The position numbers and the translations under genes were made by a program. Source: Candidatus Aminicenantes bacterium (GTDB lineage Bacteria > Acidobacteriota > Aminicenantia > UBA2199). From it: a stretch of DNA of 64,000 nt. The stretch is taken from NCBI GenBank assembly GCA_963770755.1, contig CAVYQZ010000009.1, forward strand, positions 209,195 to 273,194. The letters run 5' to 3'. Each line of letters opens with the position of its first letter. Positions within the stretch are counted from its first letter, which is position 1. A model generated the notes under the pieces. That model was not told the origin of the DNA and searched no databases. It was given only the letters and a program-made list of their open reading frames with translations. This document shows, piece by piece, positions 8,964 through 44,882 of the stretch.

Positions 8964-11294
8964 ATGGCTGACCAGAAATTCCGCAGCGCCTTGGGGACAA
9001 TCGCGCCGCTGTACTTTCTCCTGGGCGCTTTCAGCCTGGTATTCCAGACCGTGCTGCTGCGCGAATTTTTCACCGTGGCGGCCGGCAACGAAATTTCATT
9101 CGCCGTCGCCCTGGGCGCCTGGCTGCTCGGTGTCGGTGCCGGCTCCCTGTGCGCCGGATTTTTGAGCACCGGGACACAGCGCACGGCACATGCCCTGCCC
9201 TGGGTAGTGATCGCCATGTGCGTCAGCGCACCGCTGCTGCTGGCCGGCGTTCGCTGCCTGCAGCAGATCAGCGCCGTCCCGCCTGGGGCACTGATTCCCT
9301 TGAGTAAAACATTCTGGCTGGTTCCCCTGCTGACGATTCCTTTTAGCTTCTGCTGCGGTTTTGCTTTCCCGCAGGCCGGCAGGCTCGCCATGGCATCCAC
9401 GTTGAGCCCGGCCCAAAAAATGGTCCGCGCCTATGCCTGGGAGTGCATCGGCGCCCTGGCCGGCGGCCTGCTTTACACCTTTTGGCTGCTGGAAAAAATG
9501 AATCCCGTGCTGATTATCGCCTGCTTCACCCTGCCCCTGCTGTTCGGCTCGGCTTTTTCCGTTATGCTTGAAAAGAGAAAAAAAGCGCTGGCCGTCCATG
9601 TGCTGCTGCTGGCCTTCAACCTGGTCGCGATTCTGGGCGGAGGAGCCGGCAAGCTCGACTCATGGCTGGTGCGGCAAAGGTGGCGGGGTTTGTCCAGTAC
9701 GATCTGGGTGGAAGGCCGGGATTCAAAATTCCAGAACCTGCAGCTGGGCCTGAGCCACGGCCAATATTGCCTGTACGGCAACGGCCAGCTGGCCGCGGTA
9801 TTCCCGGATGATGACCAGCAGCAGATACTGGCCGCCCAGATTATGACCCAGCATCCGCGGCCGCGCCGCGTCCTGGTCATCGGCGACGGGGCCAGCGGCC
9901 TGGCCGCGCAGCTGCTGCAATATGAAATAACCAGCCTCACCGTCGTGGAGATAGACGGTGAGTTCCTGGAACTGGTTTGGAACCATTTGCCGGCCGGCCG
10001 ACGGCGCGAACTGCATGATCCGCGCCTGCGCATGCTGGTGATGGACGGCCGCCGCTTCGTCATGGAGGCGGCCAGGGCAGCGCACGGCCCCGAAAACAGA
10101 TTCGATCTGGTTTTCCTGCAGCAGCCCGATGCCTGGACCGCCCGCCTGAACCGGTATTACACCAGGGAATTTTTCATGGACTTGCGGGCGATCCTGAACC
10201 AGGGCGGCGTGGCGGCCATGCGCCTGACTTCAGCGGAAAATTATGTCTCGGAAATAACCAATCCTTACACGGCCACCATTTACCAAACCCTGAAAAGTAT
10301 TTTCCCGGCCATCAGCGTATCTCCGGGCCCGAGCAATTTCCTGGCTGCTTCATGGACACCGGACAGCGTCAGCAGCAATCCCCGCGTCCTGGCCGAACGC
10401 TATGAGCGCCTGGTCAGGCCCCCGGCCGACCTGCAGGCTATATTCGGCTCTTTGTACCCCGTACAAAAAACCGGATTCATCAAAAAGGCCCTGGATGAAT
10501 ACCCGCTCAGGTCATTGAACCGCGACCAGCGTCCCATTGCCTACTTTCTCTGCAGCCGTTTATTGGGCTGGACCAGCGGCAGCCCCCTTTCGGGCTGGTT
10601 CGATTTTTTCGAAAAAGTCGAATTTCGCAGCCTCTTTGTGATCCTGGTAGTGTTGTGCGTACTGGTGCTGCTGCGGGGCGTGCTGCGCCGGCGCAGGACG
10701 CCCGGGAATTTTTCACTTCTGTTGGCCGCGGCCGGCGGCGGATTTGCCGGGCTTTGCTTTGAAATTTTAACCATTTTCTATTTTCAGAATATCTGGGGCT
10801 ACGTTTACCAGGCCATCGGCCTGCTGATCGCCGCCTTCATGCTGGGCATGGGCGCCGGCGCCGTCTGCTTATATCGCTATCTTGAAACCAAGCCGCTTTC
10901 CAAAAAAAAAGCCAGAAATATGCTGGCCGCCATCCAGCTGCTCATCGCCGGCGCCAGCCTGACCTGCCTGCCGTTCATGAATTTTTTCGCCAAAATGGCC
11001 GGCGGATTGGGACGGATTGCACTTTTTTTCTGGCTGGGCGGGATTGGTTTTTTGATCGGGGCCATTCTGCCTCTGGCCCTGTGCGTCCATGGCCGGCAGG
11101 CGACCGCCGCCAAGGCCGGCTTTCTAATCGCCGCCGATTACCTGGGCGGCGCTATCGGCGCTCTGGCCGCGGCTTCCTTCTTACTCCCCCTCTACGGCAG
11201 CGCCAACAGCCTACTGCTCATAGCCGTGCCGGCTCTGACCACGGCGTTGCTGCTGCGGCTCGAAGCCGGATTCAATGATCCCGGCTCGGCGTGA
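8964..11294 (+). CDS. Polytopic membrane protein fused to a spermidine-synthase-like (aminopropyltransferase) domain
   Basis: N- and C-terminal multi-TM regions flank a SpeE-like Rossmann core (VLVIGDGASGLAAQLLQY...VVEIDGEFLEL...LVMDGRRF). Confidence 0.6.
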   Translation: MADQKFRSALGTIAPLYFLLGAFSLVFQTVLLREFFTVAAGNEISFAVALGAWLLGVGAGSLCAGFLSTGTQRTAHALPWVVIAMCVSAPLLLAGVRCLQQISAVPPGALIPLSKTFWLVPLLTIPFSFCCGFAFPQAGRLAMASTLSPAQKMVRAYAWECIGALAGGLLYTFWLLEKMNPVLIIACFTLPLLFGSAFSVMLEKRKKALAVHVLLLAFNLVAILGGGAGKLDSWLVRQRWRGLSSTIWVEGRDSKFQNLQLGLSHGQYCLYGNGQLAAVFPDDDQQQILAAQIMTQHPRPRRVLVIGDGASGLAAQLLQYEITSLTVVEIDGEFLELVWNHLPAGRRRELHDPRLRMLVMDGRRFVMEAARAAHGPENRFDLVFLQQPDAWTARLNRYYTREFFMDLRAILNQGGVAAMRLTSAENYVSEITNPYTATIYQTLKSIFPAISVSPGPSNFLAASWTPDSVSSNPRVLAERYERLVRPPADLQAIFGSLYPVQKTGFIKKALDEYPLRSLNRDQRPIAYFLCSRLLGWTSGSPLSGWFDFFEKVEFRSLFVILVVLCVLVLLRGVLRRRRTPGNFSLLLAAAGGGFAGLCFEILTIFYFQNIWGYVYQAIGLLIAAFMLGMGAGAVCLYRYLETKPLSKKKARNMLAAIQLLIAGASLTCLPFMNFFAKMAGGLGRIALFFWLGGIGFLIGAILPLALCVHGRQATAAKAGFLIAADYLGGAIGALAAASFLLPLYGSANSLLLIAVPALTTALLLRLEAGFNDPGSA

Positions 11295-13365
11295 ACCAAT
11301 CGTTGAGCACCTGGACGGCTTCCTCCACGACCGGGTCCCGGCGCAGGGCGTCCAGCCATTCCTTGCGCTTGGCGTCCCGGGCATCCTCTTTGCTTTGCAT
11401 CGAGCGCGCCTGCAGATAGGGAAACTCGACCTGCTCGCGGTTGAATTTTTCGGCTTCCTGGAAAAGAACGTCCTGCTCGGCCTGGAATTTTTCCAGATTG
11501 AGGGTCACCATTGTTTTCTCACGCTGTTTTTTCAGGCGGCTGATATTGGCGTCGATCTGCGCGAAGCGCGGGCTGTTCTTCAGCCGCTGCCGGCTCCTGG
11601 CTTTGATTTCGTCGAGGTCGCGGTATGAGTTTTTCCAGGGAGTGAAGGACAGCGCCGGAATCGTGTCCCAGGGCAGTGAATAGGGCTGGCTTTTTTCGCC
11701 GATATCGAGATAGGAATACAGGTCGGGCAGGATGATGTCCGGAACCACGCCCTGGTACTGGGTGGAAGCCCCGGTGATCCTGTAATACTTTTGCACGGTC
11801 ATCGTGATGGCTCCCAGGGGCTTGTAGCGGGCCATCTCGGCCGGAAGGTAGCGGTCGAGGTCCAGCATGACCTGCACCGTGCCCTTGCCGAACGTATGCT
11901 CGCCGCCGATGATAATCGCTCGCCTGTAATCCTGCAGGGCGGCGGCCACGATTTCCGAGGAAGAGGCGCTGATGGCATTAACCAGGATGACCAGCGGCCC
12001 GCCGTAACTGACCGTGGCATCGCGGTCCTCATGCACCTGCGGCGCCGATTGCCGGTCCTTCAACTGCACCAGCGGACCCGTGGGGATGAACAGCCCGGAC
12101 ATCTTTTCGGCGTCATCCAGGGCGCCGCCGCCATTGCCGCGCAAGTCCAGGATCACGCCCTCCACCTTCCGGGCCGCCAGTTTCTGCAGTTCTTTCTTCA
12201 CGTCGTCACTGGCATTGCGACCGTTGCGGCGATTGAAATCGTGATAAAACTTGGGCAGGAAAATATAGCCGAATGATTTTTTCAGATTCTCATTGAACAG
12301 GACCGCCGAACGGGCATAGGTTTCCCTGATCTCGACCACATTGCGCACCAGCGCAATCTCCATGATCCGGCCGTCCGTTTTCTTGACCGTCAGGCGCACC
12401 AGGCTGCCTTTTTTGCCGCGCACCAGCCGGGCGGCATCGCTGACGTTCATACCCACGATATCCACGGGCTCGTCGTCTCCCTGGCCGACCTTGAGGATGA
12501 CATCCTCGACCTTGAGCAGGTTCTGTCTCCAGGCCGGGCTGCCGGGAATGATCTCGAAAACCTTGATGTATCCGTCGTCTTCACCCAGCAGGGCGCCGAT
12601 GCCTTCCAGGGTACCCGACATGTCAATATCAAAATCCTCCTTGGCCCGGGGTGGAAAATACTGGCTGTGCGGATCGAACACGGCGAGCAGAGCGTTGAAG
12701 TACAAGGACTGTATATCTTCGGACCTTTCCTCCAGGAGCCTTTTGAACAGGCGCTGCACGCTCTTTTCCACAGCTTTTCGGGCCTGCACTTCCAGTTCCG
12801 GCGAAAAAACACGCTTGCGTTTCTTGCCCGGGTCCTGCTTGGCTTCGGCCAGCTTGGCCAGGTTCAGGTACTGGATCAGGGTCAAGTATTTCAGGCGCTT
12901 GGACCACCATTCTTTCAGGTCATCGAAACTGCGACCGTATTTTCTTTTTTCGGCATTAAGCTCAATCTGATCGTCAATGGAAAAATCAAACGGATTTTTC
13001 AACATGTCGCAGCAAAAATCCCGGACCTGCAGCACTCGCTGGCGCAGAAGCTGCTTGCCCAACCTGGGCAAAGCAAAATCTCCGGCAAGGATCTCATCGT
13101 CAATTTTCAGGTTGAAGACCTTGAGCGAGTCCAGGTCGCTCTGGATCAGAAAACTCTTGGAGTAATCCAGGTATTTGGCGTACTGGGCGAAACTTTTGGT
13201 TGAAAAATCATCGTCGATCTTTTTTCCGCTGTAATGCCAGTTCAGCAAACCGTTGCTAATCATCTGGCTCAGAAGTTTTTCCCGTGTTTCGGTGACCGCC
13301 GCTGCGGCGACGCCTGATAAAAATGTGCTCAGCAAAATGAGTGCGAGGACTCTGTTTTTCATCAT
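11272..13365 (-). CDS. S41 family C-terminal processing (tail-specific) protease with PDZ domain
   Basis: Signal peptide; PDZ region; S41 motifs (ILDLRGNGGG, TFGKGTVQ); 697 aa Prc/Tsp-like. Confidence 0.85.
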   Translation of the reverse strand: MMKNRVLALILLSTFLSGVAAAAVTETREKLLSQMISNGLLNWHYSGKKIDDDFSTKSFAQYAKYLDYSKSFLIQSDLDSLKVFNLKIDDEILAGDFALPRLGKQLLRQRVLQVRDFCCDMLKNPFDFSIDDQIELNAEKRKYGRSFDDLKEWWSKRLKYLTLIQYLNLAKLAEAKQDPGKKRKRVFSPELEVQARKAVEKSVQRLFKRLLEERSEDIQSLYFNALLAVFDPHSQYFPPRAKEDFDIDMSGTLEGIGALLGEDDGYIKVFEIIPGSPAWRQNLLKVEDVILKVGQGDDEPVDIVGMNVSDAARLVRGKKGSLVRLTVKKTDGRIMEIALVRNVVEIRETYARSAVLFNENLKKSFGYIFLPKFYHDFNRRNGRNASDDVKKELQKLAARKVEGVILDLRGNGGGALDDAEKMSGLFIPTGPLVQLKDRQSAPQVHEDRDATVSYGGPLVILVNAISASSSEIVAAALQDYRRAIIIGGEHTFGKGTVQVMLDLDRYLPAEMARYKPLGAITMTVQKYYRITGASTQYQGVVPDIILPDLYSYLDIGEKSQPYSLPWDTIPALSFTPWKNSYRDLDEIKARSRQRLKNSPRFAQIDANISRLKKQREKTMVTLNLEKFQAEQDVLFQEAEKFNREQVEFPYLQARSMQSKEDARDAKRKEWLDALRRDPVVEEAVQVLNDWFTPSRDH

Positions 13366-13567
13366 TCTTCCTTATTCTTCCTTCATCATGGCGATTTTTA
13401 ATTGTACCCCGATTTTGCCCCCATGGCAATATGAAAAAGCGATTGGCATGTTTTTTTTAGATAAATTATATTGACATGCAAATATTAATATATCATAATA
13501 TTATTTTGCGTCAGCCCGCTACAAACGAATCCAGTCTGCCGGTGGGCGACGCCCAAGGAGTTGCCAC

Positions 13568-13822
13568 ATGAACGAAGACGAACTGAAGAATTTAAAAGCC
13601 GACAAGGTCGTGGATGCCCGCGGTATGGCCTGCCCCGGGCCGCTTCTGGAAGCCAAAAAAGCCATCACCGCGGTCCCGGTCGGCGCGGTCATGGAAGTAC
13701 TTTCGGCCGACGAAGGCACCAACAGCGACATCCCCATGTGGGCCAAGAAAATGCAGTATGAGTTCCTGGGCATTATCGCCGATGCCGGGTTCTGGAGACT
13801 TTTTCTAAAAAAATCGAAATAA
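13568..13822 (+). CDS. TusA-like sulfurtransferase (SirA/YedF/YeeD family)
   Basis: 84 aa with the CPGP (CPxP) motif: DARGMACPGPLLEAKKAI. Confidence 0.8.
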   Translation: MNEDELKNLKADKVVDARGMACPGPLLEAKKAITAVPVGAVMEVLSADEGTNSDIPMWAKKMQYEFLGIIADAGFWRLFLKKSK

Positions 13823-13846
13823 CCCCGGGCGGAGGTAAAACAACGC

Positions 13847-14152
13847 ATGGCCGCCAATACAAAGCCACCCTATGATAAAAAACGCTGCGCCCGTTCGGCG
13901 GCCATTTTTAAGACCTTGTCCCATCCGCAGCGGCTGCAGATTTTTTGCTGCCTGTGCGAGATGGAACGGACGGTCAGCGGCCTGCAGCAGGAATGCGCCA
14001 TCCCACAGGCGGTCATTTCACAGCACCTGTCGCGCATGCGCCTGGAGGGCCTGGTGCTGGCCAGGCGCAACGGCAGTTTTGTCAGTTACCGCATCGCCGA
14101 TCCCAAGCTGCTCAAATTGATCGACACCATGCAACGGATCACCCATGAATGA
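13847..14152 (+). CDS. ArsR/SmtB family metalloregulatory transcription factor
   Basis: Winged-HTH pattern (FKTLSHPQRLQIFCCL...VSQHLSRMRLEGLV). Confidence 0.75.
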   Translation: MAANTKPPYDKKRCARSAAIFKTLSHPQRLQIFCCLCEMERTVSGLQQECAIPQAVISQHLSRMRLEGLVLARRNGSFVSYRIADPKLLKLIDTMQRITHE

Positions 14153-14555
14153 ATTCAAACCAAAAATACTTGTTTTTTCGACCGACAACGTCTCGGACCC
14201 GGGCATCGACCTGGCCGGCCGCAACAGGATGCACTACCCGGCGCAGGTGTCTGTGATCACCGTCCCCTGCTCGAGCGCCATCAAGCCGCGCTGGATCTGC
14301 CATGCCATCGAGCACGGTTTCGACGGCGTCTTCATTGCCGCCGACGGCAGCGACTGCTCCTTTATTCCTGATTGCACCCGGCGCACGGCCGGGACCGTCA
14401 GCGCAGCCCAGGAACTGCTAAAAGAGAAAGCGCTCGAACCGGCGCGGATCAAGATGTCGGCCATATGTTCGGTCTGCGCCGAATCGTTCCAGAAGCACAT
14501 GATCAATTTCAGCGAAACGCTCAGGAAACTCGGACCCGCAGCCAAGGGAAGCTGA
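14145..14555 (+). CDS. MvhD/FlpD-like (methyl-viologen-reducing hydrogenase delta subunit family) electron-transfer protein
   Basis: PKILVFSTDNVSDPGIDLAG...VPCSSAI matches the MvhD core. Its stop codon is immediately followed by the HdrA-fusion ATG at 14557. Confidence 0.7.
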   Translation: MNEFKPKILVFSTDNVSDPGIDLAGRNRMHYPAQVSVITVPCSSAIKPRWICHAIEHGFDGVFIAADGSDCSFIPDCTRRTAGTVSAAQELLKEKALEPARIKMSAICSVCAESFQKHMINFSETLRKLGPAAKGS

Positions 14556-14556
14556 C

Positions 14557-17265
14557 ATGGATTACGACGTTCTGGTCATCGGCGCCGGCATCGCCGGCAT
14601 GGAAGCCGCCGTCAACCTGGGCGACATGGGCTACAAGGTGCTGCTGGTGGAAAAGGAGCCGAGCATCGGCGGCAAAATGATCCTGCTCAGCAAGGTCTTC
14701 CCCACCCTGGACTGCGCCAGCTGCATCTCGACCCCCAAGATGGCGCAAGCCGCCAGCCACGCCAACATCGACCTGCGCGTCTACAGCGAGGTCAGGGACG
14801 TGCGCAGCGACGGCAACGGCGGTTTCAGGGCCCGGGTCATCCAGAAACCGGCTTTCGTGGACTTCGCCAAGTGCACCGGCTGCCAGGACTGCGAAAAGGC
14901 CTGCACAGTCACCGTTCCCGATGAATACAACGAAGGGCTGGTGTCGCGGCGCGTGGCCCACATCGCGTTTCCCCAGGCCGTGCCCAAGAAGGCCGTCCTG
15001 GACCGCGCCGGCACGTCGCCCTGCACCCATGCCTGCCCGGCCGGCATCAAGGCCAACGGCTACATCTCACTCATCCGCCAGGGAGAATTCGCCAAGGCCT
15101 TCAAGCTGGTACTGGCCGCTGCGCCGCTGGTGGGCAGCTTGGGCCGGGCCTGCTACGCTTTCTGCCAGAACGAATGCACGCGCGAAGAGATCGGCGACGC
15201 CCCGCACATCCGCCATCTCAAGCGCTTCGTCGCCGACTGGTACTACGCCCGCCACCCCAAGCCCGAATATGGACTGCCGGAAAAAAAGCTGGAAAAAAAA
15301 GTGGCCGTCATCGGTTCCGGCCCGGCCGGCCTGAGCGCCGCCTATTTCCTGGCAAAAAACGGCTACCCGGTAACGGTCTTCGAGGCCGACGCCGAGGCCG
15401 GCGGCATGCTGCGCTCCAGCCTGCCCGAGTACCGCCTGCCCAAAAACGTCGTCGACCGCGACATCCTCAACGTGACCGCACTGGGAGTGGAGATCAGGAC
15501 TTCAACGCCCATCGAGTCGCTGGCGCGGCTGCGGCAGGATGGCTATGCCGCCGTGCTGGTCGCCATCGGCACGCCAAAGCCGAAAAAACTCATGATAGCG
15601 GGCGAAGACCTGCCTGGCGTGGTCAGCGGCATCGAGTTCCTGGCCGAGGTCGCCTGCGGCCAGAAGGTCGCACTAAACGGCAAGAGCATCGTGGTCATCG
15701 GCGGCGGCAATGTAGCCGTGGACGCCGCGCGCACGGCGCTGCGCCTGGGAGCCGCGAAGGTCGTGCTGCAGTATCGCCGTTCGCGGGCCGAGATGCCGGC
15801 CTTTCGTGAAGAGGTCGCCGCGGCGGAGGCCGAAGGGGTGGAACTCTCCCTGCTCAGCAATCCCGTCGCTTTCGAGGCTGACGCGGGCCGCCTGAAACGG
15901 GTGCGCAGCGTGCGCATGAAGCCGGTCGAGGCGGAAGCCGACGGCCGGCGCCGCACCGTCCCCATCCCCGACACCGAGTATGGCAGCGAGTTCGACCTGG
16001 CCATCGTCGCCGTCGGCCTGAGCGCCGAGGCGGCCGCTCTGAGGAATGAAATGCGTTTGAACCGCGACGGTTCCATCTGGGCCGATCCGCGCACGCTGCA
16101 AACGGAAAACCCCTGGCTGTTCGCCGCCGGCGACGCCGTGACCGGACCGGCCATGATCGTCCAGGCCATCGGCCTGGGCAAGCAAGCCGCTTTTTTCATG
16201 GACCGCTGGCTGCGTGCCGAGCCCATGGACGGCGTTGAGTTCGCTCCCAGCCTCCCGGCCGTCGACAAGCGGGACGTGCTGGCCCGCCAGTTCGATTTTC
16301 CGGCCCAGGCGGTGCATAAAAGCGAGCGCCATCCCCACGAGCGCGTCAAGGACTTCGATGAAGTCGATATTCCGTTCAGCGAAGCCGAAGCGCTGACCTC
16401 GGCCGCCAACTGCCTGAACTGCGGCATCTGCAGCGAATGCCAGGAGTGCAAGAACATTTGCCCGGCCGACGCCATCGACTTCGACCAGCGCGCCGTCGAA
16501 AACGAATATGCCGTCGGCTCCGTGGTTGTGGCCACCGGCTTCCGCCTCTTCCCGGCCGAGCTCATGGCCAACTTCGGCTTCGGCCGCTTCGCCAACGTCA
16601 TCACGGCCATGCAGATGGACCGCCTGGTCGCGCCGACCCGGCCCTACAACTATGTCCTGCGCCCCGGCGACGGCAAGACGCCGGCCGACATCGCCTATGT
16701 CTTGTGCACCGGCTCGCGCGACCGCACGGTGAACAATCCCATCTGTTCCCGCGTCTGCTGCATGTACTCGCTCAAACAGGCCCAGCTCCTACTCGGGGCG
16801 CTGCCGATAGCCGACGTCACCATCTACAACATCGACATCCGCGCCTTCGGCAAGGGCTATGACGAGTTTTTTGAACAAACCAGAGCCATGGGCGTGCGTT
16901 TCGTGAAAGGCAAGATCGCCAGGATCAGCGAGAAAGAGAACGGCAACCTGCTGGTGCGCTACGAGGACATCGACGACAACGGCACGGTTCGGGAAACCGA
17001 GCACGACCTGGTCGTGCTTTCGACCGGCATGGTGGCCCATGACGAGTGCCGGCGGCTGTTCAGCGGCAGCGAGCTGGCCGTCGACGAGAACCTGTTCGTT
17101 GCCCAGCCCGGCGAGCAGGTCGATCCGGCCCGCACCTCGATCCCCGGCGTCTTCAGCGCCGGCACGGCCACCGGGCCGCTGGACATCCCCGATTCGATCC
17201 TGCACGCCGGGGCCGCCGCCGCCCAGACCGCGGCCTATATTGAAAAAATGAAAAGGAAATCCTGA
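14557..17265 (+). CDS. HdrA-like flavoprotein with an inserted GltD/NfnB-like NAD(P)H-binding module (HdrL-type)
   Basis: N-terminal FAD motif (VLVIGAGIAGMEAA); GltD-like FeS region plus a second dinucleotide fold (VAVIGSGPAGLSAAYFLAKNGYPVTVFE...GGML); HdrA Cys signature (CTGSRD...ICSRVCC); ferredoxin CxxCxxC motifs. Confidence 0.75.
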   Translation: MDYDVLVIGAGIAGMEAAVNLGDMGYKVLLVEKEPSIGGKMILLSKVFPTLDCASCISTPKMAQAASHANIDLRVYSEVRDVRSDGNGGFRARVIQKPAFVDFAKCTGCQDCEKACTVTVPDEYNEGLVSRRVAHIAFPQAVPKKAVLDRAGTSPCTHACPAGIKANGYISLIRQGEFAKAFKLVLAAAPLVGSLGRACYAFCQNECTREEIGDAPHIRHLKRFVADWYYARHPKPEYGLPEKKLEKKVAVIGSGPAGLSAAYFLAKNGYPVTVFEADAEAGGMLRSSLPEYRLPKNVVDRDILNVTALGVEIRTSTPIESLARLRQDGYAAVLVAIGTPKPKKLMIAGEDLPGVVSGIEFLAEVACGQKVALNGKSIVVIGGGNVAVDAARTALRLGAAKVVLQYRRSRAEMPAFREEVAAAEAEGVELSLLSNPVAFEADAGRLKRVRSVRMKPVEAEADGRRRTVPIPDTEYGSEFDLAIVAVGLSAEAAALRNEMRLNRDGSIWADPRTLQTENPWLFAAGDAVTGPAMIVQAIGLGKQAAFFMDRWLRAEPMDGVEFAPSLPAVDKRDVLARQFDFPAQAVHKSERHPHERVKDFDEVDIPFSEAEALTSAANCLNCGICSECQECKNICPADAIDFDQRAVENEYAVGSVVVATGFRLFPAELMANFGFGRFANVITAMQMDRLVAPTRPYNYVLRPGDGKTPADIAYVLCTGSRDRTVNNPICSRVCCMYSLKQAQLLLGALPIADVTIYNIDIRAFGKGYDEFFEQTRAMGVRFVKGKIARISEKENGNLLVRYEDIDDNGTVRETEHDLVVLSTGMVAHDECRRLFSGSELAVDENLFVAQPGEQVDPARTSIPGVFSAGTATGPLDIPDSILHAGAAAAQTAAYIEKMKRKS

Positions 17266-19019
17266 TGGAAGATAAAAAGAGGAAGATCGGCGTTTATATC
17301 TGCCACTGCGGCGGCAACATCTCCGACCACGTCAACGTCGAGGCCGTGCGCAAGCAGGTAGAGGATAAGTACGGCGTCACCGTGGCCAGGACCTCGATGT
17401 TCACCTGCTCCGATGCCTCGCAGAACGACATGATCAAGGATATCCGCGAGCAGGGGCTTGACGGCATGGTGGTGGCTTCCTGCTCGCCCAAGCTGCACCT
17501 GACGACCTTCCGCAACATGTCGACGCGGGCCGGGCTCAACCCTTTCCAGTACGTCCAGGTAAATATCCGCGAGCAGTGTTCCTGGGCCCATTCCGACGAC
17601 CCATCGGGCGCCACCTGCAAGGCGGCAAACCTGGTCGGGGCCGGCATCGAGAAGGCCCTGCGCCAGGAGGCGCTGCAACCCATACGCGTGACCTCGGTCA
17701 AAAGGGTGCTGGTCATCGGCGCCGGCATCGCCGGGCTGCGCGCGGCGCTGGAACTGGCCGACCTGGGGGTCGAAGTCTTCCTGATCGAAAAGGAAGCGGC
17801 TGTCGGCGGCCAGGTCGCCAAGCTCGGTGAGATGTTTCCGGTGGGCAAGACCGGGTCCGTCCTGATCGACAGTCTGCTGGCCGAGGTAAATAAAAGAGCC
17901 AACATCACCCTGTTCCTGAACGCGGAGCTGGCCGAAAAGAGCGGCCACATCGGCGAGTTTGAATTGGCGATCAGGATCAGACCCGCCTCGGCGGGCGCGG
18001 AGGAGACGGTGCGCATCGTGGTGGGGGCCATCGTGGTGGCCAGCGGCTTCGCCGAGTACGAGCCCAAGTCGGGCGAATATGAATTCGGTCGGCCGGGAGT
18101 GGTCACCCTCTCCGAATTCGAGCGCCTGCTGCGGGAAAGCGGCGAGCAACTTCTCCACAACGGCCGTGAAATGAAGAATATCGCTTTCATCTACTGCGTC
18201 GGCAGCCGTCAGGGCGCGGATAGCGAGGAGGCCAACCGCTACTGCTCGCGCACGTGCTGCAGCACCGCTACGCACCTGGCGCTGCAGGCCAAGAAGAATT
18301 TTCCCACGACCCGCTGCTACCATTTTTTCCGCGACATGCGCACCTACGGCAAGTTCGAGTCGCTCTACGAGGAAGCGGGCAAGGCGGGATCGGTCTTCCT
18401 GCGCTTCCACGAAGAGCATCCGCCCCAGCTCAAACGCGAGGGCGATTCCTGGCTGGTCGCCGTGCAGGACCTGTCCACGGGCGGCGCCGAGATCGGCGTA
18501 CCGGCAGACCTGGTGGTTCTGGTCACCGGCATGACGGCGCGGGCCAACGACAACCTGACCCGGGTGCTCAAGCTGCCCCTGGGCGCCGACCGCTTCTATA
18601 ACGAGATCCATCCCAAGTTGCGTCCGGTGGAGACGATCATCGACGGCGTCTACATCGCCGGCAGCTGCCAGGGGCCGAAAAACGCCGGCGAAAGCGTGGT
18701 TTCCGCGCTTTCCACCGTGGCCAAAGCGGCCGCACTGCTGATCAAGGGCTATGTCGACCTGCAGCCCTTCGTGGCTACGGTCAAGCCCGAGCTCTGCACC
18801 TGGTGCGGAAAATGCCAGCCGGCCTGTCCCTACAGCGCCATCGAGAAAGTGGCCTACGGCGACAAGGATGTGGCCAAGGTGGTCGATGTCCTGTGCAAGG
18901 GCTGCGGCGCTTGCCTGCCGGTGTGCCCGCTCGACGCCACCCAGCTCAAGGGCTACAGCGACGAACAGATCGAGGCCATGATCGATGTCCTGGCCCGGGA
19001 GGCCGCCCATGAAGGATAA
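17265..19019 (+). CDS. HdrA-like heterodisulfide-reductase subunit A family flavoprotein (QmoA/QmoB-like)
   Basis: Cys-rich N-terminus (IGVYICHCGGNI); FAD motif (VLVIGAGIAGLRAALEL); HdrA signature (CVGSRQ...YCSRTCC); C-terminal 2x[4Fe-4S] ferredoxin. Confidence 0.8.
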   Translation: MEDKKRKIGVYICHCGGNISDHVNVEAVRKQVEDKYGVTVARTSMFTCSDASQNDMIKDIREQGLDGMVVASCSPKLHLTTFRNMSTRAGLNPFQYVQVNIREQCSWAHSDDPSGATCKAANLVGAGIEKALRQEALQPIRVTSVKRVLVIGAGIAGLRAALELADLGVEVFLIEKEAAVGGQVAKLGEMFPVGKTGSVLIDSLLAEVNKRANITLFLNAELAEKSGHIGEFELAIRIRPASAGAEETVRIVVGAIVVASGFAEYEPKSGEYEFGRPGVVTLSEFERLLRESGEQLLHNGREMKNIAFIYCVGSRQGADSEEANRYCSRTCCSTATHLALQAKKNFPTTRCYHFFRDMRTYGKFESLYEEAGKAGSVFLRFHEEHPPQLKREGDSWLVAVQDLSTGGAEIGVPADLVVLVTGMTARANDNLTRVLKLPLGADRFYNEIHPKLRPVETIIDGVYIAGSCQGPKNAGESVVSALSTVAKAAALLIKGYVDLQPFVATVKPELCTWCGKCQPACPYSAIEKVAYGDKDVAKVVDVLCKGCGACLPVCPLDATQLKGYSDEQIEAMIDVLAREAAHEG

Positions 19020-19287
19020 CAGCCGCGAACGGTTTCCGGAAAGCATCTCCATCATCGGCAAAAAACGCGAGATCGCCCGCCAGGAGTTTGCCGTGCGCGC
19101 CCGGATTCTGGCCCTGCTGCGGGAGAAGGGTCCGCTGACCGTGCCCGAAATCGCCCAAGCCCTGGCCATTCCCGCCTATGACGCCAACTGGTGGCTGATG
19201 GGCTTCGTGCGCTACAACCAGGTCAAGGCTTCGGAAAAGGCCGATGACGAAGGCTACTACCGCTATGCGCTCATCGAGGCGAAATGA
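19008..19287 (+). CDS. Small hypothetical protein (possible winged-helix) inside the Hdr-like operon
   Basis: ATG at 19008 overlaps the hdrA stop. The ORF is conserved in frame with neighbours on both sides; no recognisable motif. Confidence 0.4.
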
Positions 19288-20417
19288 CCATGGAAAAAGT
19301 CAACGAGAACATCCTGGCCCAGATCAAGAAACTGGGCGCCTTCGACCTGGAAGCCTGCTACAGCTGCGGCACATGCTCGGCCATCTGCCCCCTCTCCAAG
19401 GACAGCGCCTCCTTCCCGCGACGCATGATCCGCTACTCGCTGCTCGGCCTCGAAAAACGGATACTGGCTGCCCCCGAGCCCTGGCTTTGCTATTACTGCG
19501 GCGAATGCAGCGAGACCTGCCCGCGCCAGGCCGAACCCGCCGCCCTGATGATGGCCCTGCGCCGTTTTGCCACCCGCCGGTATGCGCTGGGCCGCGCCGC
19601 CGACGCAGTTTATTCGTCAATGGCCTCGATTTTTACCTGGGTCCTGCTCAGCGCCGCGTCACTCGTTTTTGTTTTGCTGGCCTACAACCCCGAAATGAAC
19701 CGCAAACAGGTCGACTTCATGTCATTTATCGGCCTCGAGCCCATCCACTTGGCCGGCATCGCGCTGGTGGCCTTCATTGTCCTGGTCGCGGCGGCGCAAA
19801 TATGGATCCTGTACCGCAATCTGCGCACCTGCCTCCCGGTCCGAAGGGACCGGGACGTCGGGACTCAAACGGCCCCTCCAGCCGGCGCGGCCGTTCTCTC
19901 GGCGAAAAAGGCGGCCGTTTCGGCCTGGAAAGCCCTGAGCGAATCGGTCGTTCAGAAACGGTTTGCGGAATGCGACAACGGCCGGCCGCGCCGCCTGGCG
20001 CATATGGCCGTCTCCTGGGGTTTCATGGGCATGTTCCTGGCCACGGTCATCATCGGCGCCGTCGATTTCCACTGGCTGCCCTGGCCGCGCTGGGTTTCGC
20101 TCGTGATCGGTTCAGTCTCCGGTGTGCTGACCACGCTCGGCCTGGCCTACTATATTTACCTGCGCCTCAGCCGCAAGACGGCGGTGGGCAAATATTCCCA
20201 TCCCAGCGACTGGGCCTTCCTCATCCTGCTGGCCCTGTCGGTGCTCAGCGGCTTCGTCATGGTCCTGTTCCGCTTCCTGAACCTGCCCATGGCCGCTTAC
20301 GGCACATTCGCTTTCCACCTGGTCGTGGTTTTCGACCTGCTGGTGACGTTCCCCTTCAGCAAATTCGCCCACGTGCTCTACCGGCCGGTCGCACTTTGGA
20401 TCGCCGGATTGAAATAA
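19284..20417 (+). CDS. QmoC-like subunit: HdrC-type 2x[4Fe-4S] ferredoxin fused to an HdrE/NarI-like membrane cytochrome-b domain
   Basis: N-terminal CYSCGTCSAICP and CYYCGECSETCP motifs, followed by ~6 TM helices with His residues. Confidence 0.7.
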   Translation: MTMEKVNENILAQIKKLGAFDLEACYSCGTCSAICPLSKDSASFPRRMIRYSLLGLEKRILAAPEPWLCYYCGECSETCPRQAEPAALMMALRRFATRRYALGRAADAVYSSMASIFTWVLLSAASLVFVLLAYNPEMNRKQVDFMSFIGLEPIHLAGIALVAFIVLVAAAQIWILYRNLRTCLPVRRDRDVGTQTAPPAGAAVLSAKKAAVSAWKALSESVVQKRFAECDNGRPRRLAHMAVSWGFMGMFLATVIIGAVDFHWLPWPRWVSLVIGSVSGVLTTLGLAYYIYLRLSRKTAVGKYSHPSDWAFLILLALSVLSGFVMVLFRFLNLPMAAYGTFAFHLVVVFDLLVTFPFSKFAHVLYRPVALWIAGLK

Positions 20418-20446
20418 CGCAAAAAAGTAATTCGAGGAGGAAATAA

Positions 20447-20929
20447 ATGAGCGACACGCAAGTTCCCGAAAAAGTCAGTCTGATCGTCATGAGCGGTGAC
20501 ATGGACAAGGTGATGGGCGCCTTCATCATCGCCAACGGCGCCGCCGCCTTCGACATGCAGGTGACCATGTTCTTCACTTTCTGGGGCTTGAAGGCCATCC
20601 AGAAAGGCAGCCGCACCGGCAAGGGCATCATGGGCAAAATGCTGGGCGTCATGAACCGCGGCGGCATCGAGCGCCTCTCCCCCAGCAAGCTTAACATGGG
20701 CGGAATGGGCCGCTGGATGTTCAAGAAGATGATGAAAAAACACAACGTAACGCCTTTGGCAGAACTGCTGCGCCAGGCCCAGCAACAAGGCGTCCAGCTC
20801 ATCGCCTGCGAGATGAGCATGAACGTCATGGAAATCGCCAAGGAAGACCTGATCGATGGAGTCAAGGTCGGCGGCGTGGCCACGTTCATCGCTGAAGCTT
20901 CCGAATCCAAGATCCAGCTGTTTATTTAA
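20447..20929 (+). CDS. DsrE/DsrF-like sulfur-relay family protein
   Basis: 160 aa; DsrE-fold pattern with the conserved Cys in QLIACEMS. Confidence 0.65.
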   Translation: MSDTQVPEKVSLIVMSGDMDKVMGAFIIANGAAAFDMQVTMFFTFWGLKAIQKGSRTGKGIMGKMLGVMNRGGIERLSPSKLNMGGMGRWMFKKMMKKHNVTPLAELLRQAQQQGVQLIACEMSMNVMEIAKEDLIDGVKVGGVATFIAEASESKIQLFI

Positions 20930-20947
20930 TTCAATCATAACGGCTCA

Positions 20948-21781
20948 TTGCTTTATTCCGAACCGCTGTTCCGTCCGCCGGCCGAAGCCACGTCGCTGAT
21001 CGTCCAGGTCAGCGAAGGCTGCGCTTACAACCGCTGCCGGTTCTGTCCGATGTACAAGGGCAAAAAATTTCGGGTCCGCGCTCAAGAGGAGATCGATCGC
21101 CATCTGGACAATCTGAGCAGGGCGTTCGGGACCGCCCAGAACCGTGTGTTCCTGGCCGACGGCGACGCCCTGGTGCTGCCCACGGCGGATTTGCTGACCG
21201 TCATGGCGCAGGTCCGGCGCTCATTCCCGACCGTGCGCCGTTTCGGCGTTTACGGTTCGGTCTTTTCACTGGCTGACAAGACCCGCAACGATCTACTTGA
21301 ACTCAAGCAGGCCGGACTGCGCACGGTGTACCTGGGACTGGAGTCAGGCGACGAAGAGACGCTGCGACGGATGGAAAAATACATGGAAGCGCGGCGCATG
21401 GCCGAACTCTGCCGCCGCGTGGTCGCGGCCGGCCTCAACCTGTCGGTGATGGTCGTCATCGGCCTGGGCGGCCGCTCGCGCTCCCGGCTGCACGCCGAAG
21501 CCTCGGCAAGGCTGGTCAACGAGATCGGCCCCAGCCACACCTCGCTGCTGAACCTGCTGCTCGCCCACACCCCACTGGCGGAAAATCCTGATTACAATGC
21601 CTTCGGCATTGAAGACTATTTTTCCGAAACAGCGGCCTTTGTCTCGCGCATCGAATGCAGGACTATTTTTCGCGCCAACCACGCCTCCAACCCGGTGGCG
21701 CTGGAAGGGGTGCTGCCACGCGATCGCGATAGTATCCTAAGCCAGCTGGAGATGGCCTTATCTCACTATCGCGATGCGTAA
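20948..21781 (+). CDS. Radical SAM domain protein, function unknown
   Basis: CAYNRCRFC (Cx3Cx2C) cluster motif near the N-terminus. Confidence 0.75.
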   Translation: MLYSEPLFRPPAEATSLIVQVSEGCAYNRCRFCPMYKGKKFRVRAQEEIDRHLDNLSRAFGTAQNRVFLADGDALVLPTADLLTVMAQVRRSFPTVRRFGVYGSVFSLADKTRNDLLELKQAGLRTVYLGLESGDEETLRRMEKYMEARRMAELCRRVVAAGLNLSVMVVIGLGGRSRSRLHAEASARLVNEIGPSHTSLLNLLLAHTPLAENPDYNAFGIEDYFSETAAFVSRIECRTIFRANHASNPVALEGVLPRDRDSILSQLEMALSHYRDA

Positions 21782-21783
21782 CA

Positions 21784-22075
21784 TACTTTCACTATGATTT
21801 CAACTAGTCTCTAAGTTGTTGAAATCATCTAGTGAAAGTATACCATCACTTGATGTTTTCAGCGGCTTTCTATGCATGCTGAAAACATAGTGATGGTAGA
21901 CGAATCAGATCCGCCTAAGTCGGCGGATGATTTGTGCTGCCCCTCTCTTTGGAAGAGAGGGGTTGGGGTGAGTTATGTGTTCTCCAACTCATTTCCCGGG
22001 CAGGGTCTTTCCATCACTGGATGTTTTTGACGGATTGATTGTATTGTCAAAAACATAGTGCTGGTAGACAAATCA
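21784..22075. repeat. Cluster of REP/BIME-like bulged hairpin elements: hairpins at 21784-21840 (inverted orientation), 21843-21896 and 22010-22064; each of the latter two is followed by GGTAGAC(G/A)AATCAG; three short GC hairpins lie between
   Basis: Imperfect ~55-nt palindromes whose arms carry CACTNGATG on one side and CATAGTG on the other, leaving an asymmetric 2-nt bulge. Hairpins 1b and 1c differ by compensatory stem changes (CAGC/GCTG versus TGAC/GTCA). Confidence 0.8.
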
Positions 22076-38766: not shown

Positions 38767-38819
38767 AGCCATATTTGACTCAGCTTCATGTTTGGCATAA
38801 AATTCATGTAGGGGCCCAA

Positions 38820-44641: not shown

Positions 44642-44882
44642 TTATTCTCCTTCCATAGTGCAACGATCTGAAATTCAACAAGCAGGACCGCCATCGGTTT
44701 GAAAGGCGATTACAGGCCGCTGAAACGGTTCAAAAAAGCGACCACGACGCTGTGTCGGCTGTGGGTCATCATGGATCCATTGTACCCCGGGAGGAAAAAG
44801 TTGTAAACATCCGGCCCGCGAGCTTTCTGCGTTGACGGCAATGACGAAATATAATACAATAGCCCTTTCCTTCAACCCGCGG

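Follow-up and report, generated by a model that had tools for sequence, protein, structure and literature searches.

A Qmo-like HdrA gene cluster associated with the sulfur carriers TusA and DsrE in a Candidatus Aminicenantes bacterium

In the known Qmo complexes MvhD is fused into the QmoB subunit (PMC4911364), and a 'type II' Qmo, which occurs in organisms without Apr or Dsr, has been set apart from them (PMC10504309). Pairs of HdrL and MvhD tied to sulfur metabolism are known from Desulfobacterium (PMC2702500), and sets of TusA and DsrE are an established sulfur feed for another Hdr-like complex, sHdr (PMC11094781). We found no paper in the literature describing a linkage of TusA/DsrE to a Qmo-like HdrA complex. 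Here we analysed a stretch of 64,000 nucleotides (the window) from a Candidatus Aminicenantes bacterium, in which nine plus-strand genes between 13568 and 21781 combine these two sets of proteins in one operon (Table 1).

An earlier note on this DNA had described nine co-directional, tightly spaced or overlapping genes, and all of these ORFs and junctions were recovered. The genes arsR and mvhD overlap by 8 nt, hdrL and hdrA share one nucleotide in TGATG, hdrA and the small winged-helix ORF overlap by 11 nt, and the small ORF meets qmoC in an ATGA overlap at 19284, or else qmoC starts at 19290. The gap between dsrE and the radical SAM gene is 18 nt and contains no terminator-like site, and the latter gene, which starts with TTG without an obvious ribosome-binding site, is probably co-transcribed with the operon here. 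The promoter is strong and sigma-70-like (TTGACA-17-CATAAT, 11 of 12 consensus matches), and is overlapped by the AT-rich palindromes ATATTAATAT (13482–13491) and ATAATATTAT (13495–13504). The architecture TTGACA...ATATTAgAATATTaTAATAT...TAATATT is also found 5′ of tusA in the arsR-carrying loci of Aminicenantes and Krumholzibacteriota, and the palindromes are a probable ArsR operator. At the 3′ end of the transcription unit, two long palindromes (21783–21905) precede a terminator-like hairpin (21909–21928) and its T-rich tail. The flanking genes, a Tsp protease upstream on the minus strand and a helicase downstream, are unrelated.

Table 1. Features of the operon and its flanks (positions in the window)
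Feature	Position	Strand	Match or remark
Promoter-like site and palindromes	13471..13505	+	TTGACA 13471–13476, CATAAT 13494–13499
tusA	13568..13822	+	PF01206, E = 1.5e-20; 84 aa, CPGP motif
arsR/smtB	13847..14152	+	NF033788, E = 1.6e-21, 75.9 bits (cutoff 55)
mvhD (FlpD), [2Fe-2S] electron-transfer subunit	14145..14555	+	PF02662, E = 2.9e-30
hdrL, 902 aa, 'long' HdrA1	14557..17265	+	HdrA2 model E = 2.8e-134; PRK12771 E = 3.8e-136
hdrA (HdrA2), 584 aa	17265..19019	+	HdrA2 model E = 5.6e-149, 497.6 bits
Winged-helix protein, 92 aa	19009..19287	+	ATG 19009 start as in orthologues; between hdrA and qmoC
qmoC-like	19290..20417	+	Fer4_8 and Nitrate_red_gam; alternative start 19284
dsrE2-like	20447..20929	+	PF13686, E = 4.5e-53
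Radical SAM, 277 aa, CX4CX2C	20948..21781	+	PF04055, E = 7.6e-17
Inverted repeats and terminator-like hairpin	21783..21928	+	3′ end of transcription unit, after radical SAM gene

Profile searches upheld the identities proposed before for TusA, ArsR, MvhD, HdrL, HdrA and the QmoC-like, DsrE-like and radical SAM proteins, and with two HdrA flavoproteins, MvhD and a QmoC-like anchor all present, the assignment to a Qmo/Hdr-type module stands. HdrL carries an NfnB/GltD-like NAD(P)H-FAD-2×[4Fe-4S] module (Fer4_20 and Pyr_redox_2) set into the ferredoxin insert of HdrA: residues 1–130 and 604–897 match HdrA, residues 153–641 match GltD/NfnB, and the translation contains the dinucleotide motif GGGNVAVDAAR. 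Its conserved cysteines are those of FPTLDC53xxC56, C106–116, C156/160/199/203/207, C619–635 and C717/730/734/735, and C53 and C56 align with Cys194 and Cys197 of the methanogen HdrA 5odc_A. HdrA2 consists of an N-terminal Fe-S domain, an FAD domain, a C-x15-C-x3-CC cluster and a C-terminal 2×[4Fe-4S] ferredoxin domain, and has neither the ferredoxin insert nor the FPTxDCxxC motif; it matches 5odc_A over residues 11–247 and 315–652, and conserves Cys13/15/48/73, 311/327/331/332 and 511–554. In MvhD, Cys42/71/77/108/111 are conserved. The QmoC-like protein matches the QmoC model NF038018 over its full length with 213.9 bits, and six cluster-linked homologues scored between 149 and 214 bits, all below the NCBI equivalog cutoff of 300. 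It has two CxxCxxCxxxCP motifs, invariant His153/238/304/343/361 and about six hydrophobic segments, and at its N-terminus it is similar to HdrC from Hdr complexes of known structure. These domain matches agree with the proposed fusion of HdrC to a cytochrome-b anchor, and identify an HdrC-like 2×[4Fe-4S] domain joined to a NarI/HdrE-like domain, the probable site of two b-type hemes.

Both sulfur carriers fall below the equivalog cutoffs: TusA scored 40.7 bits against the 78-bit cutoff of the E. coli-type TusA equivalog and the DsrE2-like protein 86.7 bits against the DsrE2 cutoff of 210; no transmembrane segment was predicted in the latter. Cys22 of TusA, the presumed persulfide site, is invariant in all 59 cluster-linked homologues, and the single cysteine of the DsrE2-like protein, Cys121, in 49 of 49. 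Moreover, no component is better conserved than TusA (mean identity 66%), whose distances track those of the QmoC-like protein and HdrA2 (r = 0.90), indicating that it co-evolves with the redox subunits. A SufS/CsdA-like cysteine desulfurase, which the earlier note did not mention, adjoins the cluster in ∼14 relatives at three different positions, and is a lineage-specific neighbour outside the core.

Related loci carrying the cluster number ∼80. They come from over 10 phyla, archaea among them, and belong to Aminicenantes, Krumholzibacteriota, Chloroflexota, Actinomycetota, Bacteroidales, Planctomycetota, Ignavibacteria, NC10, Thermoplasmatota and others; the cultured Marinifilaceae Labilibaculum euxinus and Ancylomarina longa are included. 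The recurrence of the order tusA-(arsR)-mvhD-hdrA1-hdrA2-small-qmoC-(dsrE) in these loci across many phyla puts the arrangement far beyond chance. Its core comprises tusA-mvhD-hdrA1-hdrA2-(small winged-helix)-qmoC-like: of 52 informative loci, all have mvhD, in every case directly 3′ of tusA or tusA-arsR, and 51 have tusA, while a DsrE-like gene lies beside the cluster in 39 of 47 loci, with two copies in some. Clustering of flanking ORFs revealed no other recurrent partner and no AprAB-like, HdrB/CCG or hydrogenase genes. The synteny proposed earlier thus held for TusA, with its co-evolution, and for DsrE, with the cysteine of each invariant, and failed for the radical SAM gene, which has no homologue adjoining the cluster in any close relative; only locus L045 has one, 9 kb away, and we regard the gene as a lineage-specific passenger outside the conserved system. 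Nor does ArsR belong to the conserved unit, being found mainly in the Aminicenantes/Krumholzibacteriota branch. It shows a weak BigR-type likeness (63.1 bits against the BigR model and 54.6 against TsoR, both below cutoff), and conservation of Cys14 and Cys34 in 84% and 88% of 32 orthologues makes it a candidate thiol-based sensor. Finally, HdrA1 occurs in a long form with the NAD(P)H module in 31 loci and in a short form without it in 22, interspersed in the tree. The module is an optional add-on, and therefore 'NAD(P)H:quinone', as the module had been described earlier, cannot be the core reaction.

The ninth gene, unnamed in the earlier note, encodes a conserved winged-helix protein with 114 homologues, mostly of 92 aa, among which no conserved cysteine was found. 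Its AF2 model (mean pLDDT 81.5) is closest to the folds of Zalpha, the AF1sfx HTH, SmtB and MarR. Of 79 loci, 57 gave a BLAST match to the gene, and ORFs of 93–104 aa occupy the same position in others. The protein is translationally coupled, and serves either as a small conserved subunit or as a second regulator.

We consider it about an even chance, from gene content and motifs, that the operon encodes a Qmo-like ('type II') HdrA complex with sulfane sulfur on TusA/DsrE as redox partner, that is, a sulfur relay and a membrane complex. The relay would consist of TusA and the DsrE2-like protein with one invariant cysteine each, and may be fed in some lineages by the adjoining desulfurase. In the membrane-bound part, HdrA1 and HdrA2 would probably form a heterodimer like the methanogen HdrA dimer, MvhD would be a [2Fe-2S] connector, the small winged-helix protein may also take part, and the HdrC-type Fe-S domain of the QmoC-like protein should connect the flavoproteins with two b-type hemes and with the menaquinone pool; in the window HdrA1 is HdrL, with its full NfnB/GltD-type NAD(P)H-FAD-Fe-S module. 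A persulfide on TusA or DsrE, derived from polysulfide or S0, or from cysteine via the desulfurase, would then be the redox substrate in place of the AprAB or HdrB of known relatives. Electrons from NAD(P)H (via HdrL) and/or menaquinol (via QmoC) would converge on the HdrA flavins, and the carrier persulfide would probably be reduced to H2S, although transfer from menaquinol to persulfide is thermodynamically unfavourable unless coupled. The sequences themselves show the gene set, its cofactor motifs, conservation and joint inheritance, and the lack of AprAB and HdrB; the assembly of a complex, its substrate, the direction of the reaction and a possible bifurcation or confurcation of electrons are what we infer from them. 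Because no subunit has a CCG/non-cubane cluster, the catalytic site is hypothetical; it may be Cys53-x-x-Cys56 beside the HdrA1 flavin. Control of the operon probably lies with ArsR, acting at the conserved AT-rich operator; thiols or persulfides may be what it senses. Such a system would serve as an electron sink and in sulfane-sulfur detoxification in anaerobic, sulfidic habitats.

The same subunits would also suit a general bifurcating or confurcating NAD(P)H/ferredoxin:menaquinone oxidoreductase, an analogue of FixABCX or Nfn, with TusA/DsrE as accessories in Fe-S building or regulation. In its favour are the HdrA-type flavins, the NfnB-like module, the ferredoxin domain at the C-terminus and the quinone anchor, together with the absence of a disulfide-reducing CCG site; MvhD and the ferredoxin domains befit a pure electron-transfer machine, and a dozen or more Fe-S clusters could conceivably be supplied with sulfur by the carriers. 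However, TusA is co-inherited with the complex as its most conserved component, it is accompanied by a DsrE-like carrier, or two, and in some cases by a desulfurase of its own, generic Fe-S assembly normally needs no operon-specific TusA/DsrE, and 22 loci do without the NAD(P)H module, and hence we find this reading unlikely, if worth keeping in view. Rather improbable is the oxidative direction, in which sulfide or carrier sulfane sulfur would be the donor and the HdrA flavin would bifurcate electrons downhill to menaquinone and uphill to NAD(P)+/ferredoxin, making a cytoplasmic, bifurcating counterpart of sulfide:quinone oxidoreductase that also forms TusA persulfide for biosynthesis. It fits the same anatomy, the mid-point of the menaquinone and NAD(P)+/ferredoxin potentials is, by textbook values, near S0/HS−, and carriers come from sulfidic sediments (record titles, and a Black Sea isolate). 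Yet many carriers are fermentative lineages without an obvious quinol sink, the adjoining desulfurase already makes persulfide, leaving little need to make it from sulfide, and the cluster has no linked catalyst for oxygen-atom insertion or sulfite formation.

A desulfurase-TusA-DsrE relay delivering sulfur or selenium to a cofactor, tRNA or metabolite, with electrons from the complex and insertion by the radical SAM enzyme, would follow the logic of tRNA thiolation (E. coli IscS-TusA-TusBCD). Weak YedF and selenocysteine-lyase similarities and the radical SAM gene 3′ of dsrE accord with this, but that gene is not conserved with the cluster, MnmA, ThiI, MoaD, SelD or another target-specific enzyme is not linked, and a quinone-linked multi-flavin membrane complex is disproportionate for a biosynthetic reductant, so that we regard it as quite improbable. 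For an sHdr-type sulfur-oxidising system, with the radical SAM protein as LipS-type lipoate maturase, one could cite the HdrA-like protein, the radical SAM gene and the association of TusA with DsrE typical of sHdr (PMC11094781); such an identity is very improbable and conflicts already with the absence of the subunits that define sHdr, HdrB1/B2 (CCG domain), separate HdrC1/C2 and LbpA, as well as with the non-conserved radical SAM gene and the QmoC-type anchor. Least credible is an ordinary QmoABC serving an APS reductase encoded elsewhere: two HdrA-like proteins accompany a QmoC-like anchor whose best NCBIfam match is QmoC, but the cluster-linked homologues all score below the QmoC cutoff, and neither the window nor the annotated related loci hold aprAB, sat or dsrAB. 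Among the carriers are Marinifilaceae, Aminicenantes, Krumholzibacteriota and Anaerolineae, none of which is known for sulfate reduction. Against it also stand the separate mvhD (PMC4911364) and the prior separation of 'type II' Qmo without Apr or Dsr (PMC10504309). The earlier view that the locus matches neither canonical Qmo nor sHdr is supported in that no aprAB adjoins it and HdrB/CCG and LbpA are lacking.

The preferred reading, a Qmo-like complex with carrier-bound sulfane sulfur as partner, can be set against the known systems as follows. The Cys-x-x-Cys pair is common to methanogen HdrA and hence not specific to this system. Every characterised Hdr or DsrK has a CCG/non-cubane cluster for disulfide chemistry that no subunit has here. 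HdrB1/B2, separate HdrC1/C2 and LbpA of sHdr are absent, and the QmoC-type anchor is foreign to sHdr. Compared with the Qmo of sulfate reducers, this is a related membrane-anchored flavin/Fe-S complex, here in fermentative microbes of sediments, without linked sulfate-reduction genes and with MvhD as its own gene instead of a part of HdrA/QmoB, and the operon points to an undescribed way in which sulfur bound to proteins is coupled to NAD(P)H and the quinone pool.

The nine co-directional genes with overlapping or near-overlapping junctions that the earlier note had described were recovered exactly in that form by ORF calling and by Pfam and NCBIfam scans (see the table), and no plus-strand terminator-like hairpin was found at any gene boundary within the cluster. 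A near-consensus promoter is present ahead of tusA at 13471-13499, and terminator-like hairpins are located 3' of the radical SAM gene. An AT-rich palindromic element, ATATTAgAATATTaTAATAT...TAATATT (13480-13505), overlaps the -35 and -10 hexamers of the tusA promoter and is kept upstream of tusA in the arsR-carrying operons of Aminicenantes and Krumholzibacteriota (L005, L008, L010, L014, L017, L021-L024, L031, L045, L063 and L074; L-numbers denote related loci from other genomes). This element is likely the operator of the ArsR repressor. ArsR itself is largely restricted to the Aminicenantes/Krumholzibacteriota branch, scores 63.1 bits with the BigR model (cutoff 155), and carries two fairly conserved Cys residues (14 and 34), whose positions presumably differ from those of the sensing Cys of BigR and SqrR. 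It also matches weakly an NCBIfam model named 'TsoR', and no literature was found under that name. As a separate observation, two long and almost perfect inverted repeats, larger than a simple terminator, lie right behind the radical SAM stop codon at 21783-21905 (for example, ACTTTCACTATGATTTCAAC...GTTGAAATCATCTAGTGAAAGT and ATCACTTGATGTTTTCAGC...GCTGAAAACATAGTGAT).

Genes of the TusA-linked Qmo-like operon and its flanks (window positions)
Feature	Position	Strand	Source
TusA	13568-13822	+	Pfam and NCBIfam scans
ArsR/SmtB regulator	13847-14152	+	Pfam and NCBIfam scans
MvhD/FlpD, 136 aa	14145-14555	+	Pfam and NCBIfam scans
HdrL, 902-aa HdrA with complete GltD/NfnB-like module	14557-17265	+	Pfam and NCBIfam scans
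HdrA2, 584-aa HdrA	17265-19019	+	Pfam and NCBIfam scans
Small winged-helix ORF, weak HTH matches	19009-19287	+	Pfam and NCBIfam scans
QmoC-like protein	19290-20417	+	Pfam and NCBIfam scans
DsrE2-like protein	20447-20929	+	Pfam and NCBIfam scans
Radical SAM protein	20948-21781	+	Pfam and NCBIfam scans
Tail-specific protease gene, divergent, upstream flank	11272-13365	minus	
Helicase gene, unrelated, downstream flank	23649 onwards		

Close homologues of the QmoC-like protein are from Aminicenantes/Acidobacteriota MAGs (70-88% identity), and more distant ones are from Krumholzibacteriota, Latescibacterota and Bacteroidales. Gene calls around four homologues of 50-59% identity returned TusA, HTH_5, FlpD, HdrL, HdrA, a 92-aa ORF, the QmoC-like protein and the DsrE2-like protein, and the flanks of these four loci were entirely different despite the shared order. 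A scan of one genome per species gave 80 loci, and when the window proteins were mapped onto these by tblastn and blastp, the order tusA-(arsR)-mvhD-hdrA1-hdrA2-(small ORF)-qmoC-like was found in essentially every locus with sufficient sequence, down to 30-35% QmoC identity. TusA was present in 51 of the 52 informative loci and MvhD in all 52, a DsrE-like gene in 39/47 (two in some), and the small winged-helix ORF in at least 57 of 79. The carrier lineages include Anaerolineae/Chloroflexota, Actinomycetota, Bacteroidales, Planctomycetota, Ignavibacteria, NC10, Syntrophales, and Thermoplasmatota and Methanobacteriota archaea, and the cluster is also present in the cultured Labilibaculum euxinus (L088/L089) and Ancylomarina longa (L090). 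In these Marinifilaceae the operon is of the short form, that is, its first HdrA paralogue (HdrA1) has no NAD(P)H module, and a divergent Crp/FNR-family regulator stands upstream in place of ArsR, suggesting that the cluster is controlled by anaerobiosis or redox state. Synteny thus backs the proposal that sulfur carriers take the place of AprAB as partners of a Qmo/Hdr complex, and the TusA/DsrE carriers are tied by gene order to a Qmo-like complex in more than ten phyla including archaea. The association is more general than could be seen from the window. Clusters 71-78% identical to those of Aminicenantes (~52% for L040) also occur in MAGs labelled Chrysiogenales, Clostridia or Patescibacteria (L011, L020, L022, L023, L040 and L074); in these cases the contigs have probably been mis-binned and the labelled taxa are not the true hosts, and the labels were given no weight.

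The Cys22 of the TusA CPGP motif is invariant in 59/59 cluster-linked sequences. Among the proteins of the set, TusA shows the highest conservation (mean 66% identity), and its pairwise distances correlate with those of the second HdrA paralogue (HdrA2) and of QmoC (r = 0.90); therefore it was inherited with the complex and not repeatedly recruited. Its score is 40.7 bits versus the 78-bit cutoff of the E. coli-type TusA equivalog, and we regard it as a TusA-family member with a Cys-Pro-x-Pro motif, a putative carrier rather than a demonstrated TusA orthologue. The DsrE2-like protein scores 179.8 bits with PF13686 and 86.7 bits with the DsrE2 equivalog NF047629 (cutoff 210), and its Cys121 is invariant in 49/49 sequences. 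As the DsrE2-like protein has no hydrophobic or transmembrane segment, a membrane-anchor role such as that proposed for some DsrE2A finds no support here. Clustering of the flanking ORFs gave mostly antisense shadow ORFs of dsrE and of a desulfurase, and the sole genuine new family was a second, divergent DsrE-like protein. No fusion of the QmoC-like protein with TusA or DsrE was found among the long representatives in a Rosetta-stone search. Distant QmoC-like proteins are fused to a TauE/SafE sulfite-exporter domain (P0497; P-numbers denote homologous QmoC-like proteins), to a CCG/HdrD-like domain (P0383) and to an SdhB-like 2Fe-2S Fer2_3 domain (P0417), which shows that the QmoC-like anchor module is reused with other partners, some of them sulfur-related.

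The QmoC-like protein matches Fer4_8 and Nitrate_red_gam and contains a pair of CxxCxxCxxxCP motifs together with five invariant His and some six hydrophobic segments; its N-terminus matches HdrC from solved Hdr complexes. It follows the QmoC design, with an HdrC-like 2x[4Fe-4S] domain joined to a multi-span cytochrome-b (NarI/HdrE-like) domain. In the loop between hydrophobic segments, at residues ~183-198, a 16-residue insertion (PVRRDRDVGTQTAPPAG) is common only to the window protein and P0005 among 14 aligned homologues. HdrA2 aligns to residues 11-247 and 315-652 of 5odc_A, the methanogen HdrA structure, and retains an N-terminal Fe-S and an FAD domain, the C-x15-C-x3-CC cluster and, at the C-terminus, the di-cluster ferredoxin domain; the inserted ferredoxin domain is missing. 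HdrL, the long form of HdrA1, is an HdrA flavin core without the N- or C-terminal domains, and its inserted ferredoxin domain is interrupted by an NfnB/GltD-type unit of ~490 residues with two [4Fe-4S] sites, FAD and the dinucleotide motif GGGNVAVDAAR. The hallmark C-x13-15-C-x3-CC cluster of HdrA is present in both paralogues, and only HdrL still has the FPTLDC53xxC56 motif, the counterpart of Cys194/Cys197 in the alignment with 5odc_A, which HdrA2 has lost. Neither protein reaches the curated HdrA equivalog scores, as expected because they are non-methanogen paralogues. All five conserved Cys are present in MvhD. The small protein, 92 aa in orthologues and devoid of conserved Cys, is predicted to form a winged helix after a long helix (pLDDT 81.5) and resembles Zalpha, SmtB and MarR domains. 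With this fold, no conserved Cys and no DsrC Pfam match, it is out as a DsrC/TusE-like carrier.

Several parts of the operon vary between lineages. The long form of HdrA1 (850-965 aa) occurs in 31 loci, and the short form (425-535 aa, in most cases 425-470), which keeps the ferredoxin insert intact and lacks the NAD(P)H module, in 22. When the QmoC-like proteins were arranged by neighbour joining, the clade of the window was predominantly long-form, and the long form also turned up sporadically among short-form lineages; because the two forms are interspersed, NAD(P)H is an optional partner. Hence the view that an NAD(P)H:quinone module is the core of the system did not hold, as the 22 short-form loci do without the NAD(P)H part. 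The inclusion of the radical SAM enzyme in the system has to be given up as well, because no homologue adjoins the cluster in any relative and the single homologue found, in L045, is 9 kb away; the gene in the window is probably co-transcribed, but it is a passenger. Its start codon is TTG with no evident ribosome-binding site, its cluster motif is CX4CX2C (CAYNRCRFC) and not the canonical CX3CX2C, and comparisons with PDB and NCBIfam gave just a generic similarity to the class-B (B12-type) core, without the B12 domain. A SufS/CsdA-like cysteine desulfurase of 475-515 aa adjoins the cluster in ~14 Krumholzibacteriota-type loci, where it is placed upstream and divergent, upstream and co-directional, or downstream, and its C-terminus carries a LRTGCFCNPGAGE motif, which we take to be the one known from Moco-sulfurase-type NifS domains. 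When the remaining flanking ORFs were clustered (~75 loci), no further recurrent partner emerged and no AprAB-like, HdrB/CCG or hydrogenase gene was among them.

Elsewhere in the window, a second radical SAM gene (40320-41447) follows a Memo-like gene (38775-39848), a pair which we take to be reminiscent of the three-gene AmmeMemoRadiSam system, whose third partner is AMMECR1. An HI0933-like flavoprotein gene on the minus strand (33080-34310) is divided into two overlapping ORFs (33654-34310 and 33080-33724) that correspond to the N- and C-terminal parts and match the same Pfam families, which reflects a frameshift, a pseudogene or an assembly error. The region ~44000-53500, beside tRNA-Thr (CGT) at 44882-44957, has a G+C content of 38-47% versus 55-64% elsewhere, and may represent a genomic island that has inserted at this tRNA gene; eight of its ORFs (166-381 aa) gave no PHROG match, and three of these were scanned against Pfam without a match.

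The conserved parts list, the cofactor motifs, the invariant carrier Cys, the co-inheritance, the occasional desulfurase and the lack of any other catalytic partner lead us to infer that the substrate of the redox complex is brought to it by the sulfur carriers, so that sulfane sulfur bound to TusA or DsrE would stand in for AprAB or the heterodisulfide. By analogy with the Mvh-Hdr structure, HdrA1 and HdrA2 would form a heterodimer, electrons would pass via the HdrC-like domain of QmoC and the b hemes to menaquinone, and MvhD and the ferredoxin domains would link further partners, with the NfnB-like insert linking NAD(P)H in the case of the window. In its most specific form, the proposal is that the operon encodes a new class of HdrA-based flavin bifurcating/confurcating enzyme in which TusA-S-SH or DsrE-S-SH is one of three redox partners, occupying the position of a heterodisulfide, of APS reductase or of a soluble substrate, and in which the persulfide is coupled to menaquinone via the QmoC-like cytochrome b and also to NAD(P)H in the long form or to ferredoxin in the short form; we offer this as a tentative idea, and consider it rather unlikely to be correct as it stands. 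The main objection to persulfide reduction is that the cluster has no disulfide-reducing site of the CCG type. A candidate persulfide site is the Cys53-x-x-Cys56 pair next to the flavin of HdrA1, though this pair is common to ordinary HdrA. The missing CCG-type site would suit a rival explanation in which the complex is a general bifurcating NAD(P)H/ferredoxin:quinone enzyme and the carriers are merely accessory, and against that rival stand the near-constant presence of TusA and its common inheritance with HdrA2 and QmoC.

If the carriers do present the substrate, the direction of the reaction has to be considered. We favour, weakly, a reduction of the persulfide to H2S, for which NAD(P)H and/or quinol would serve together with a low-potential donor, over the rival oxidative, sulfide-driven direction, because the organisms concerned are mostly anaerobic fermenters of sulfidic habitats, because a persulfide made by the desulfurase needs reduction before it can leave as sulfide, and because no catalyst for oxidation to sulfite is linked to the cluster. 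A biosynthetic sulfur or selenium relay is a further rival, with which the desulfurase of some loci would be compatible; a quinone-linked membrane complex with several flavins would, however, be more than a biosynthetic reductant needs.

Qmo and Hdr complexes are central in anaerobic energy conservation, and the partners known for them until now are APS reductase, heterodisulfides and, in the case of sHdr, sulfur oxidation linked to lipoate. No published description of a TusA-linked Qmo-like operon was found in the open-access full-text literature, and the association of TusA/DsrE with a Qmo-like HdrA membrane complex is widespread and apparently undescribed, the window having its long variant with the NAD(P)H module. 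If the carriers indeed bring a persulfide as redox partner, this would be an unrecognised energy-coupled module for sulfane- or cysteine-sulfur respiration (or for sulfide activation) in a large set of 'fermentative' sediment lineages, among them Aminicenantes, Krumholzibacteriota, Marinifilaceae, Anaerolineae and Thermoplasmatota. The distribution of the cluster also suggests that 'fermenters' abundant in sulfidic sediments may join cryptic sulfur cycling via cytoplasmic sulfane-sulfur redox chemistry. An experimental approach is feasible since the cluster is present in cultured Labilibaculum and Ancylomarina, and the NfnB-like NAD(P)H unit, gained and lost as a module, offers a natural experiment on partner exchange in bifurcating enzymes.

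The insert of HdrL resembles the modules of the NfnAB/SudAB/DsrL type, matching NfnB/GltD-like proteins over ~490 residues that include the two [4Fe-4S] sites, the FAD site and the NAD(P)H motif, and among the relatives of NfnB, DsrL and SudA have roles in sulfur metabolism. Unlike in those systems, the module is spliced into the ferredoxin insert of an HdrA instead of being a separate enzyme, and it is missing from many orthologous operons. Compared with methanogen MvhAGD-HdrABC (PDB 5odc), the cluster shares the HdrA FAD domain, the C-x13/15-C-x3-CC cluster, the ferredoxin domains and the Cys194/Cys197 pair, together with MvhD as connector and an HdrC-type domain as exit to a high-potential acceptor. 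It differs in that a cytochrome-b/quinone module takes the place of HdrB, which holds the heterodisulfide site, that there is no hydrogenase, and that two distinct HdrA paralogues, one with an NAD(P)H module, replace the homodimer. HdrL of Desulfobacterium autotrophicum, the organism in which this design received its name, is likewise a fusion of HdrA with the glutamate synthase small subunit that has an NAD(P)H site and is always accompanied by mvhD, and at one locus hdrL and hdrA stand in tandem; HdrL was proposed to feed electrons from NADH into the metabolism of sulfur (Strittmatter et al. 2009, PMC2702500). The window has the same HdrA/GltD fusion with adjoining mvhD; the Desulfobacterium HdrLs, however, are described as soluble and lie beside dsrABC or fdh, whereas the present one lies beside a QmoC-like anchor, TusA and DsrE, and several of them are selenoproteins whereas the window HdrL uses Cys. 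In the sHdr system, TusA/DsrE sulfur transferases are always present and feed protein-bound sulfur, and DsrE2 was proposed as a membrane-associated partner (Tanabe et al. 2024, PMC11094781). As in sHdr-LbpA, an Hdr-related complex is genetically tied here to TusA and DsrE2/DsrE3-type carriers. Membership of sHdr nevertheless fails, since HdrB1/B2, HdrC1/C2 and the lipoate-binding protein are lacking (no PF02754 match for the CCG domain in the nine operon proteins and none recurrent in the flanks; no GcvH-like gene for LbpA in scans of the window), and a QmoC-type anchor, MvhD and full-length HdrAs are present instead. As for genes of LbpA maturation, the one radical SAM gene of the operon is not conserved with the cluster. 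Moreover, the hosts of the present cluster are mostly anaerobic fermenters and not sulfur oxidisers.

The nearest relative is Qmo. As in QmoABC, two HdrA-related flavoprotein genes lie directly 5' of a fusion of HdrC-like and NarI/HdrE-like cytochrome-b domains, and an MvhD module is present. The earlier note had set the arrangement apart from canonical QmoABC as well as from sHdr, and this distinction stood. With the QmoC equivalog NF038018 (cutoff 300 bits), the window protein scored 213.9 and five homologues from other phyla 148.6-208, all in full-length alignments, so that the QmoC-like proteins of this cluster are below the cutoff. Neither aprBA nor sat is linked to it, unlike in canonical QmoABC: no aprAB, sat or dsrAB was found among 30 further large ORFs across the 64-kb window, which are only housekeeping or unknown genes, nor in the annotated related loci. 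In the canonical complex an MvhD-like domain forms the C-terminus of QmoB, QmoA is described as a short FAD protein, and both lack certain HdrA domains (PMC4911364); here MvhD is a separate gene heading the operon, HdrA2 keeps the N-terminal Fe-S domain and ends in a ferredoxin domain, and HdrA1 retains the inserted ferredoxin domain, in the window together with the NfnB/GltD module. The winged-helix protein is extra, and TusA and DsrE-like carriers are constant companions. Neukirchen et al. 2023 (PMC10504309) describe a 'type II' Qmo that occurs in organisms with or without Apr or Dsr proteins and in which subunits A and B come nearer to typical HdrA, its role being left unclarified there. 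The present cluster, compared with that account by description, likewise has HdrA proteins resembling typical HdrA and apparently occurs in hosts without Apr or Dsr, and it probably belongs to type II Qmo. The persulfide reading, if true, would also account for type II Qmo in organisms without Apr or Dsr, and the link to TusA/DsrE gives a concrete, testable candidate function for type II Qmo proteins.
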